The notes beneath the pieces were generated by a model that ran no database searches, was not told the origin of the DNA, and saw only the letters and a program-made list of their open reading frames with translations. Below are positions 12,112 to 13,533 of a stretch of 64,000 bases of DNA, piece after piece (the stretch's first letter is position 1; each line of letters begins with the position of its first letter). Made by a program: the position numbers and the translations under genes. The DNA is from Cumulibacter sp. Its GTDB lineage: Bacteria > Actinomycetota > Actinomycetes > Mycobacteriales > Antricoccaceae. The stretch spans positions 4,106-68,105 of the forward strand of contig JBKEDB010000013.1 of NCBI GenBank assembly GCA_047975195.1, read 5' to 3'.

Positions 12112-13533
12112 ATGGTCGCCGTGATCGAGTTTCGCCGCCGACGTGCCCGAACCGCGCTGATCGCGGGGGCTCTCGCAGCGGTTATGGGGCTTGCCACACC
12201 GACCTATGCGGCACCGGGTGATTCCGAGCAATCGGAGGCGTCCAATCAGTCGCCGCAGACCGAGTCGACATCCAGCGCACCGGAGCCAGCCTGTGACAAC
12301 CCGCCGTCCGCTGCCCAGATCAACCCGAAAGTGCCCTGGACCGTAGCGAACTATGACCCGGCGCAGCGGCTTTGGCCCTACAGCAGCGGTAAGGGCGTCA
12401 CCGTCGCGGTCGTATCGACCGGGGTGGCGCCCACCCAAAGTCAACTGGCACCGCAGATGCTCACCGGTTATGACTTCGTGCGCAACACCAGCGAAGGAAT
12501 GGACGACTGTATTGGCCAGGGCACCGCGATCGCGACCGTGATCGCTGCGCAAGAGTCAGATCAGACTGGATTCGTCGGCCTCGCACCGGACGCGAAAATT
12601 CTGCCGGTCCGGGTTGCGGAGAAGGAGCAGGTCGTCGCCAATACCGATGAACCCCTCGATCCCGCGACCATCGCCAGCGGTATCGAATGGGCCGCCGAGC
12701 AGGGGGCTGGAGTCATCGTGGTCGCTGACGTCAGTTTCGTCGACGATCCCGCCTTGGCGAGCGCGGTAAAGGCGGCACAGTCCGCCGGCGCCGTGATCGT
12801 CGCACCTGTCGGGGACGACCATCCGAAGGAGGAGCCGGCGTCCTTGCAGCCCACACCGGCGGATCGAACTCCTTATCCAGCGGCATATGAAGGTGTGATC
12901 GGCGTAGGGGCGATGAGTTCGAGTGGTATTCGGGTACCGTCCTCACAGGTCGGCCCCTATGTCGATGTCATCGCTCCGGGCGAGGATGTGCCTGCGGGCG
13001 CGCCAAGTGGTGGACATCAGGTATATAGCGGAACGGCGATAGCCTCCAGCTTCGCCGCAGCCGCCGTAACGTTGTTGCTGGCCCAGCCCGATACGCCATG
13101 GGTACCCAGTGGCGGCATCGAGAAGTCTCTGGCAGTTGAGCTTCGGCTACGCAGCACGGCATCGCCAGTGTCCGGCCACTTCGCCGAGTTGGGCTACGGC
13201 GCAGGCGCGGTTGATCCGGCCCGCGCGCTGACGGACCTGACCAACTCTGAGGCCGCTGCGAGTGCGACACCGTACGAGCCCCCGGTGCGCAGTGAGCAGG
13301 AACTGGCTCAGCAGAAGTTTGCCGAGGACGGCGAGTCACGTGCACTCGCGCTGACCTGGGGGGCCCTGGGTGGCCTGGCTGCGGTGGTCCTGGCGCTGTC
13401 GCTACTTCGCCGTGTCCGCGCCAATAAGGCTCGTGTGCTCAGTACGCCAGAACGGGTGGAGAGCGAACGCGATCAGGAATTGCAGTACGTGCCCGGTGAG
13501 CAATTGTTCGCGCCGCCCGCGAAGCCGGAGTAA
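12112..13533 (+). CDS. mycP: Mycosin (MycP, subtilisin-like S8 fold, ESX component), predicted catalytically inactive
   Basis: Signal peptide 'RRRRARTALIAGALAAVMGLATPTYA' and C-terminal TM anchor 'WGALGGLAAVVLALSLL'. The S8 motif blocks are present but mutated: VAVVSTGV (expected DTG), DCIGQGT (expected HGT), YSGTAIASS (expected GTS). Start taken at ATG 12112; the track ORF begins at 12031. Confidence 0.85.
   Translation: MVAVIEFRRRRARTALIAGALAAVMGLATPTYAAPGDSEQSEASNQSPQTESTSSAPEPACDNPPSAAQINPKVPWTVANYDPAQRLWPYSSGKGVTVAVVSTGVAPTQSQLAPQMLTGYDFVRNTSEGMDDCIGQGTAIATVIAAQESDQTGFVGLAPDAKILPVRVAEKEQVVANTDEPLDPATIASGIEWAAEQGAGVIVVADVSFVDDPALASAVKAAQSAGAVIVAPVGDDHPKEEPASLQPTPADRTPYPAAYEGVIGVGAMSSSGIRVPSSQVGPYVDVIAPGEDVPAGAPSGGHQVYSGTAIASSFAAAAVTLLLAQPDTPWVPSGGIEKSLAVELRLRSTASPVSGHFAELGYGAGAVDPARALTDLTNSEAAASATPYEPPVRSEQELAQQKFAEDGESRALALTWGALGGLAAVVLALSLLRRVRANKARVLSTPERVESERDQELQYVPGEQLFAPPAKPE

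Follow-up and report, generated by a model that had tools for sequence, protein, structure and literature searches.

A mycosin without catalytic residues in a type VII secretion locus of Cumulibacter, probably retained as a structural component

The type VII secretion system (T7SS) locus of a Cumulibacter species encodes a mycosin in which the entire catalytic triad and the oxyanion-hole Asn are replaced, and this mycosin is under purifying selection like that on its partners EccB and EccD. We consider it likely that the gene is the locus's own mycosin turned pseudo-protease, kept as a structural part of the EccB-EccC-EccD-EccE complex. Mycosins are a conserved part of T7SS, and what makes them essential has been under debate ever since a protease-dead MycP1 proved able to support secretion. 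The sequence comparisons described here suggest that the mycosin is retained as a structural part of the machine, not as an enzyme. Tight conservation without catalytic residues, along with varied losses in relatives, provides evolutionary evidence for non-catalytic retention that is independent of the mycobacterial mutants, and lends support to published work that sees an architectural function as the essential one of MycP.

Architecture of the mycosin and its replaced residues

The coding sequence (12112-13533, + strand; 473 aa) forms an open frame of 473 codons without interruption from 12112 to the stop codon at 13531-13533. Other starts have been called: the NCBI call for the C. soli orthologue corresponds to a GTG at 12121 (470 aa) and a Logan gene call to an ATG at 12046 (495 aa), while the 'MVAV' start of the frame used here is kept in the sequences P0003, P0005 and P0006. 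Promoters and terminators were scanned for from 11900 to 13800 and none was detected, a scan that is uninformative for a high-GC actinobacterium.

The protein has the subtilase (S8) fold. PF00082 matches it with E=1.8e-25 over profile positions 1-259 of 288, the S8 core of the AF2 model has pLDDT values mostly above 90, and Foldseek matches the model to subtilisins (TM-score normalised to the target, 0.87-0.90) as well as to MycP1 and MycP3. Among the sequence and fold matches are MycP1, MycP3 and MycP5, the last (7np7) with 138 bits. The best HMM is the mycosin model TIGR03921, which aligns from position 3 to 346 of 353 and scores 209.3 bits; this lies below the trusted cut-off of this curated family (278.75 bits); canonical positional orthologues reach 283 bits, and other degenerate relatives 189-227. 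Like MycP1, MycP3 and MycP5, the S8 subtilases of ESX-1, ESX-3 and ESX-5 (PDB 4kb5, 4j94, 4kg7, 7np7), it shows the subtilisin fold, an N-terminal extension, a Sec signal and a C-terminal transmembrane segment, has TIGR03921 as its best HMM, and belongs to a cluster of eccB, eccC, eccD, eccE and esx genes. The identification as a mycosin made in an earlier note on this DNA is borne out by fold, architecture, best HMM and genomic place. Unlike the mycobacterial proteins, with which it shares ~24-26% identity in the Foldseek alignments, it has the Asp, His, Ser and oxyanion Asn replaced, carries a conserved cytoplasmic tail of ~40 residues, and comes from Cumulibacter (Geodermatophilales) instead of Mycobacterium.

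A Sec-type signal peptide (aa 1-33; 12112-12210, + strand) can be read from the sequence as RRRRAR, a hydrophobic core and a cleavage site between TYA and AP, the cleavage motif 'AYAAP' being kept in orthologues. A single C-terminal transmembrane anchor (aa 411-432; 13342-13407, + strand) has a 19-residue Kyte-Doolittle mean of ~2.0, and the AF2 model places helices at 5-26 and 395-437. Sequence inspection, hydropathy and model thus agree with the earlier note that signal peptide and anchor are retained. The cytoplasmic tail that follows (aa 433-473; 13408-13530, + strand) contains the conserved motif ERDQEL-QYVPGEQLFAPP; 20 of its 41 positions are invariant within the Cumulibacter clade, and all 21 sequences of alignment A1 have F466, with L465 conserved in at least 90% of them. 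The protein has just two Cys residues, Cys61 in the N-terminal extension (12292-12294, + strand; at least 90% conserved in alignment A1) and Cys133 in the mycosin 'DC..G[H]GT' motif (12508-12510, + strand; invariant in A1), which presumably form a disulfide. The Cys pair is present in 38/44 triad-less and 203/222 intact homologues, and the C-terminal transmembrane segment in 38/44 of the triad-less ones.

The earlier note had recognised the three S8/mycosin signature blocks and reported a replaced Asp, His and Ser in them, and the codons are exactly where it put them: Ser102 (TCG, 12415-12417) at the catalytic Asp position, Gln136 (CAG, 12517-12519) at the His position and Ala309 (GCG, 13036-13038) at the Ser position, all on the + strand. 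The column assignment is supported by two independent alignments that concur, and the HMMs span the region. In phmmer alignments to solved subtilases from the PDB, 'AVVSTG' pairs with 'AVLDTG' or 'AVIDTG', 'GQGT' with 'GHGT' or 'NHGT', and 'SGTAIAS' with 'GTSMA'; in a MAFFT alignment of the query with 120 homologues, 72 canonical sequences carry D/H/N/S in the columns of S102/Q136/D235/A309. A fourth catalytic substitution, absent from the earlier note, lies at the oxyanion-hole Asn position, which is Asp235 (GAC, 12814-12816, + strand; 'APVGDDHP' against 'AAGN..') in both the PDB and the MAFFT alignments. The Asp-His-Ser triad and oxyanion-hole Asn characteristic of mycosins are thus missing from this protein. 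With substitutions at the nucleophile Ser, the general base His, the orienting Asp and the oxyanion-hole Asn alike, no serine-protease chemistry appears possible, and we infer that the mycosin would lack such activity. Related to an enzyme family but devoid of its catalytic residues, and under selection all the same (dN/dS 0.09), the protein falls among the pseudoenzymes.

Could hydrolytic activity have been retained through non-canonical or migrated catalytic residues? In certain supposed pseudoenzymes, the catalytic residues may have moved to other places in the sequence (PMC10211241), and His237 and Asp235/Asp236 ('GDDHP') adjoin the old oxyanion position while Ser102 occupies the old Asp position. 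However, His237 is invariant in canonical mycosins too and is therefore no new feature; sister pseudo-clades have Ser, Gly or Ala at position 102, so that no alternative nucleophile is conserved; and the loss extends to all four canonical catalytic positions. With no replacement residue conserved across the pseudo-clades, we judge a migrated triad very improbable.

The secretion locus and the question of a second protease

The mycosin gene lies in a complete ESX-type T7SS locus. Divergent from it is the gene for a YbaB/EbfC-family protein (11585-11962, - strand; PF02575, E=3.4e-11), syntenic in 6/6 related loci. Beyond this are a conserved protein of 532 aa (9850-11448, - strand), which has no family match and is syntenic in loci L001, L003 and L087, and a giant protein of more than 3279 aa (3-9839, - strand), which runs past the start of the window, the whole 64-kb stretch of DNA analysed. 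The giant carries an N-terminal WXG100_2 domain (PF25547, E=1e-17) and is likely to be a T7SS substrate of the locus; its syntenic counterparts measure 5249 aa (L087), 5174 aa (L001), 4596 aa (L086) and 2398 aa (L085). On the other side of the mycosin gene are two genes for WXG100 proteins: the first, of 99 aa (13708-14007, - strand), is 99% identical to the C. soli copy and scores 27.2 bits against a cut-off of 27.3 with PF06013 (E=4.8e-6), and the second, of 108 aa (14055-14381, - strand), scores 53.6 bits with TIGR03930 (cut-off 44.85) and matches PF06013 with E=1.8e-12. They are followed by EccB (14546-15967, - strand; TIGR03919, 286 bits, cut-off 154), EccD with its YukD and EccD membrane domains (15971-17380, - strand; TIGR03920, 207 bits; PF19053, PF08817; its start, giving 469 aa, follows the C. 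soli orthologue), an EccC that fuses EccCa and EccCb (17467-21441, + strand; TIGR03924, 947 bits; TIGR03925, 869 bits) and an EccE-like protein (24426-25928, + strand; TIGR03923, 107.8 bits, cut-off 108; PF11203, E=7.9e-8).

The placement of the mycosin gene among eccB, eccC, eccD, eccE and esx genes recurs by synteny in six related loci. In one of them (L084), the canonical positional orthologues P0010 and P0014 share the identical order of YbaB, mycP, two WXG100, EccB and EccD; the canonical mycosin is 43% identical to that of the query, similar to the 47% of EccB. Unlike the query, P0010 and P0014 retain D/H/N/S and, at 283 bits, narrowly exceed the TIGR03921 cut-off of 278.75. The pseudo-mycosin gene stands precisely where L084 has its canonical mycosin, which makes it the mycP of its own locus and no additional copy.

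Proteolysis might still belong to this T7SS and come in trans from a second, canonical mycosin or another envelope protease whose gene lies outside this locus, the pseudo-mycosin being one half of a divided function. The stretch of genome covered is 64 kb only, and protease redundancy has been invoked for the MycP5 active-site mutant (PMC5082899). A scan of a genome collection with a mixed alignment of pseudo- and canonical sequences had no Cumulibacter contig among the 600 stretches listed, which were mostly Micromonospora and Streptomyces loci. However, no second S8 gene was found within the 64-kb window or within +/-10 kb of the five related loci that have full flanks. Two database searches, seeded with the pseudo-mycosin and with the canonical positional orthologue, listed matches down to Micromonospora-level divergence, and among the matches listed the only Cumulibacter proteins were orthologues of the pseudo-mycosin, with no other Cumulibacter mycosin. 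As the gene also holds the canonical mycosin's exact position, such a division of labour strikes us as distinctly unlikely.

Selection on the mycosin and its proposed structural role

The mycosin of this Cumulibacter species is 95% identical to that of C. soli (WP_166741719.1), from which its gene differs at 87 synonymous and 26 non-synonymous sites (dS 0.28). The resulting dN/dS of 0.090 compares with 0.077 for EccB, 0.061 for EccD and 0.034 for EccC. For more distant orthologues, 62-67% identical, the mycosin gives 0.14-0.24 and EccB 0.15-0.24, values that are near saturation (dS ~1-1.6), and the C. soli comparison is the reliable one. Across five other loci, the protein divergence of the mycosin tracks that of EccB and EccD regardless of the state of the triad.

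An unconstrained gene would eventually lose all of its catalytic residues, as would be expected of a decaying pseudogene. The 473-codon frame is intact, though, dN/dS is 0.09 at an unsaturated dS, and the signal peptide, Cys pair, transmembrane anchor and tail motif are conserved, in line with the earlier note's view that the gene is not decaying. Nor do the substitutions stem from sequencing error, which that note had named as a possible refutation: all four residues recur in assemblies of independent origin (C. soli GCA_004382795.1, a Cumulibacter MAG, Logan and ENA contigs), and the change from Asp to Ser (GAY to TCG) takes three base changes and so cannot be a single-base error. Orthologues do share the substitutions, since 18/18 other collected Cumulibacter-clade sequences, down to ~61% identity, have S/Q/D and either A or G. 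The dN/dS value and the recurrence in independent assemblies rule out a pseudogene or a sequencing or assembly artefact to the point where its probability is negligible.

We propose that the pseudo-mycosin would be exported by the Sec pathway and anchored by its C-terminal helix. It retains the subtilisin fold, the N-terminal extension with its Cys pair and the conserved cytoplasmic tail. By analogy with MycP1 and MycP5, the reason for its retention may be that it docks onto the extracytoplasmic domains of EccB and, by way of its transmembrane helix, onto EccD. Once docked, it would stabilise or cap the EccB-EccC-EccD-EccE membrane complex. Secretion of the substrates, which comprise the two WXG100 proteins and probably also the giant WXG100_2 protein, would then involve no cleavage by a mycosin. 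Binding to EccB and EccD, together with a stabilising effect on the complex, is known for MycP1 and MycP5 (PMC5082899, PMC8131196) and would extend to the pseudo-mycosin by virtue of its co-conservation with EccB and EccD. Against a direct transfer stands that the host is not Mycobacterium and is assumed to lack a mycomembrane; its T7SS may or may not build the MycP-capped hexamer of mycobacterial ESX-5. The MycP5 trimer caps the EccB5 cavity in the periplasm and drives EccB5 hexamerisation, its transmembrane helix binding EccD5 (PMC8131196). In MycP1 and MycP5, mutants of the active site or the substrate groove still support secretion and complex stability (PMC5082899), and the two studies uphold the earlier note's premise that MycP stabilises the complex independently of proteolysis. 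The state proposed for the query from its sequence, a disabled mycosin that supports secretion and the complex, would resemble that of the engineered protease-dead M. marinum variants MycP1 S354A and N259Y and MycP5 S461A and D362Y (PMC5082899). Whereas those are single-residue changes in mycobacterial proteins, the query differs naturally at four positions, fixed in a genus-level clade and under purifying selection.

It is also possible that the dead enzyme was repurposed. Its old groove would then bind passing substrates or a regulator, giving the protein the role of a receptor, gate or chaperone that does not cleave, in place of a passive scaffold. Within the Cumulibacter clade the old active-site motifs are the most conserved segments of the protein (10/11 positions of the D-motif are invariant), and S102, Q136 and D235 are fixed, without drift, over ~40% sequence divergence, which may mean that the old active site acquired a specific new function instead of simply being lost. 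The active sites of MycP5 face the lumen of the periplasmic chamber (PMC8131196), and ligand-sensing S8 pseudoproteases are known, the NCBIfam model for CspC being named 'bile acid germinant receptor pseudoprotease'. However, many unrelated residues stand at the replaced positions in related lineages, with no common new site; the motifs sit in the fold core, where structural demands keep them conserved across all subtilases; and a bulky residue blocking the groove of MycP1 or MycP5 left secretion unimpaired (PMC5082899). We therefore regard repurposing as unlikely. The clostridial Csp pseudoproteases (CspC, and CspA as part of CspBA) do resemble the query in having kept a subtilase fold for a non-catalytic role, but their spore-germination system and architecture are unrelated. 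Membership of the CspC/CspA type was rejected, NF040808 (E=0.092) and NF040809 (E=0.035) giving ~11 bits against cut-offs of 675 and 1250.

Under the preferred reading, that of a structural component, the fold is presumably kept for a non-catalytic, structural purpose. Substrate processing should not be assumed in non-mycobacterial T7SS, and the natural, stable, inactive variants could be used in structural work on EccB and MycP.

Triad loss in related loci

The Cumulibacter mycosin is not unique, as judged from sequence comparison, since the same orthologous locus in related lineages carries many different degenerate triads; to how often these arose independently, the neighbour-joining tree of the mycosins is a rough guide only. 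Loci with the same synteny show other states, namely the canonical DHNS (L084), DHDA (Klenkia marina, L086) and SIDT (L085). Among the 150 nearest clusters at 50% identity, 20 retain none of the triad residues, and 62 are without one or more of them. Given these canonical and degenerate sets in the same locus type, the query is one extreme of a widespread trend, apparently undescribed so far: we found no description of naturally inactive mycosins in the searchable literature, which omits most subscription journals.

Asp at the oxyanion position correlates with triad loss across homologues. We lean slightly towards a scenario in which catalysis was lost recurrently in this one orthologous type of T7SS locus, in Geodermatophilales and relatives, with the change from Asn to Asp coming first and decay of the triad after it, lineage by lineage. 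The states observed suggest an order that begins with replacement of the oxyanion-hole Asn by Asp while the triad is intact (DHDS forms) and continues with parallel decay of the triad (DHDA, DHDG, DFDG, DQDA, SIDT, GSDA and the SQDA of the query). If this is true, selection in these systems acts on an architectural function of the mycosin, with proteolysis an accessory, and the locus type spans a natural gradient of active to wholly inactive forms on which MycP function could be dissected.

In the degenerate relatives the Asp position holds S, G or A, the His position Q, I, A, F, L, T, E, W or R, and the Ser position A, G, T, P, C or D. Degenerate mycosins fall below the TIGR03921 cut-off and go without a T7SS label, an annotation gap illustrated by the C. 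soli orthologue, which NCBI names only 'S8 family serine peptidase'.

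The mycosin gene and its catalytic positions

The uninterrupted ORF at 12112-13533 (+) encodes a 473-aa protein whose fold and architecture, together with its locus and positional orthology, identify it as a mycosin. In profile searches it matches Pfam Peptidase_S8 (E=1.8e-25), and its top NCBIfam model is the mycosin equivalog TIGR03921 (209 bits, profile positions 3-346 of 353), with the runner-up family at 54 bits. All three triad residues are replaced. Phmmer alignment to solved subtilases and a 120-sequence MAFFT alignment, in which 72 canonical homologues carry D/H/N/S in the same columns, agree in placing Ser102 (TCG, 12415-12417, +) at the catalytic Asp position, Gln136 (CAG, 12517-12519, +) at the His position and Ala309 (GCG, 13036-13038, +) at the Ser position, codon for codon as an earlier note on this DNA had read them. 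A fourth catalytic position is changed as well, with Asp235 (GAC, 12814-12816, +) replacing the oxyanion-hole Asn. It is unlikely that the protein instead cleaves by means of a non-canonical catalytic set.

The same note's view that frame, signal peptide and membrane anchor are intact also holds, since the signal peptide comprises RRRRAR, a hydrophobic core and TYA|AP, and a hydrophobic C-terminal helix (aa 411-432) precedes a 41-residue tail with a conserved motif. Only two cysteines are present, C61 and C133, conserved in at least 90% and in 100% of the family alignment, respectively. AlphaFold2 (21-sequence alignment) confidently predicts the subtilisin core (pLDDT mostly >90), and Foldseek matches the model to subtilisins, MycP1 and MycP3. 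However, since the protein lacks the catalytic triad and falls short of the curated TIGR03921 cut-off (278.75 bits), two formal marks of a mycosin, it is best described as a mycosin-derived pseudo-protease.

Maintenance of the gene and recurrent loss of catalytic residues

Within Cumulibacter, which is placed in Geodermatophilales, the pseudo-mycosin is 99.8% identical to MFV0532604.1 from a Cumulibacter sp. MAG and shares 94.9% identity with WP_166741719.1 of C. soli, labelled 'S8 family serine peptidase' by NCBI. Against the C. soli locus (GCA_004382795.1), where estimates are unsaturated, its dN/dS is 0.090 (87 synonymous and 26 non-synonymous differences; dS 0.28), compared with 0.077 for EccB, 0.061 for EccD, 0.034 for EccC and about 0.03 for the WXG100 pair. 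Against orthologues of 62-67% identity dN/dS is 0.14-0.24, like EccB, at a dS close to saturation, and in five other loci the divergence of the protein parallels that of EccB and EccD irrespective of triad state. Every Cumulibacter-clade sequence collected (18 from independent assemblies: P0001-P0007, P0121-P0130 and the query) carries S/Q/D plus A or G, and the most conserved segments of the mycosin within the clade are the former active-site motifs. Low dN/dS at unsaturated dS, divergence that tracks EccB and EccD, and residues kept across assemblies therefore exclude both pseudogene decay, against which the earlier note had argued, and sequencing error at the triad codons, which it had considered. 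The gene is maintained.

The query is the locus's own mycP, and loss of catalytic residues is recurrent. Related loci share identical synteny while catalytic states (residues at the Asp, His, oxyanion Asn and Ser positions) differ by lineage: canonical DHNS in locus L084 (P0014, barely above the TIGR03921 cut-off), DHDA in Klenkia marina and SIDT in locus L085. The Cumulibacter clade's sister group has DQDA, and Epidermidibacterium keratini has GQDP. Among the 150 nearest 50%-identity cluster representatives in a 1.84-billion-protein library (four partial and unscorable), 84 have an intact triad, including 73 with full D/H/N/S, while 62 have lost at least one triad residue and 20 all three. 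This set is biased to neighbours of the pseudo-protease, which is partly controlled by the 120 nearest neighbours of P0010, a canonical positional orthologue: here 75 are intact, 45 have lost at least one residue and three have lost all. Triad-less proteins mostly keep the Cys pair (38/44) and the C-terminal TM anchor (38/44), and the replacement residues are very diverse. The groove may have taken on a new role in binding without cleavage, with which the fixed S102, Q136 and D235 would be compatible, but replacements that differ so much between clades speak against any shared new site.

There is a strong association between Asp at the oxyanion position and triad loss: among full-length homologues, 35 of the 222 whose triad is intact have this Asp, versus 95 of the 120 that lack at least one triad residue. 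This points to an early stage at which this locus type could dispense with catalysis, followed by parallel decay, and inactivation may have started with the Asn-to-Asp change; we infer in what order these events took place, and how many losses were independent, from a rough neighbour-joining tree. Among homologues, the Asn-to-Asp change occurs far more widely than triad loss. With TIGR03921 scores of 189-227 bits, below cut-off, degenerate mycosins receive generic NCBI labels ('S8 family serine peptidase' or 'subtilase family protein'), which leaves their T7SS link invisible in genome annotation.

A proposed role without proteolysis

The premise that MycP stabilises the membrane complex independently of proteolysis, stated in the earlier note, is backed by published work. 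M. marinum secretion is still supported by MycP1 S354A and N259Y and by MycP5 S461A and D362Y, and the membrane complexes, roughly 1.5 MDa in size, depend on both MycP1 and MycP5 for their stability (PMC5082899). In the structure of ESX-5, the EccB5 cavity in the periplasm is capped by three MycP5, which drive EccB5 hexamerisation, with the MycP5 TM helix contacting EccD5 and the active sites facing the lumen (PMC8131196). The best explanation would be that the pseudo-mycosin has only the architectural role described for MycP1 and MycP5, and that export of the locus's substrates involves no mycosin processing. Another mycosin, encoded outside this locus, may instead provide proteolysis in trans, but no further Cumulibacter mycosin is among the best 120 matches listed in each of two large searches; a tblastn search of the 64 kb window, with pseudo and canonical mycosins as queries, reveals no other S8 gene.

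The closest functional analogues of the pseudo-mycosin are the engineered protease-dead MycP1 and MycP5. The analogy to clostridial CspC-type S8 pseudoproteases is one of principle alone. MycP has been portrayed as carrying a conserved serine-protease domain (PMC5082899, PMC5156307), and a full-text literature search found no report of naturally inactive mycosins; natural inactivation appears to be an unreported, widespread pattern. Because it fits current MycP models it would not shock a specialist, but it is still a useful natural experiment.

The mycosin tail and the surrounding locus

The cytoplasmic tail (13408-13530, +), with its conserved motif ERDQEL-[QK]YVPGEQLFAPP, could touch EccC or EccD on their cytosolic side. 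Across pseudo and canonical mycosins of Geodermatophilales-type and Micromonospora-type loci, F466 never varies and L465 is kept in at least 90%. In its Y-x-x-x-E spacing the motif is similar to the T7SS YxxxD/E signal, possibly by coincidence.

Family profile matches across the window place the gene inside a complete ESX-type T7SS locus, with a YbaB-family protein (11585-11962, -), two WXG100 proteins (13708-14007 and 14055-14381, both -), EccB (14546-15967, -), EccD (15971-17380, -), EccC (17467-21441, +) and EccE (24426-25928, +), as well as a 532-aa protein without family match (9850-11448, -) and two proteins without significant family match (21624-24363, +). The protein at 3-9839 (-), which exceeds 3279 aa and continues beyond the window start, carries a WXG100_2 domain at its N-terminus (PF25547, E=1e-17) and, after it, long low-complexity stretches rich in Ser/Thr/Ala, and is probably a very large T7SS substrate; syntenic giants adjoin the same locus in C. 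soli (5249 aa), a MAG (5174 aa), Klenkia marina (4596 aa) and L085 (2398 aa). Between EccC and EccE, a 662-aa protein (22375-24363, +), conserved and syntenic in all related loci, has a PPE/WXG100_2-like N-terminus by a very weak match (E about 0.01-0.02) and could be a further substrate or a component with a chaperone-like role.

Near the locus, a 598-aa protein (29405-31201, +) joins a right-handed beta-helix domain at its N-terminus to an AAA module of the CbbX/SpoVK/EccA type. It matches TIGR03922 (EccA) at 223 bits, over the AAA part only and under the model cut-off, and is possibly an EccA-like ATPase whose N-domain is not of the TPR type; neighbouring genes encode a ParA/Ssd-like protein (27979-29532, -) and an SseB-family protein (27044-28003, -). 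An M23-type peptidoglycan hydrolase-like protein (31303-32529, -), encoded a few kb away from the T7SS locus, has an N-terminal coiled-coil region similar to RipA/DIP1281, and one might speculate that it is tied to secretion across the wall.
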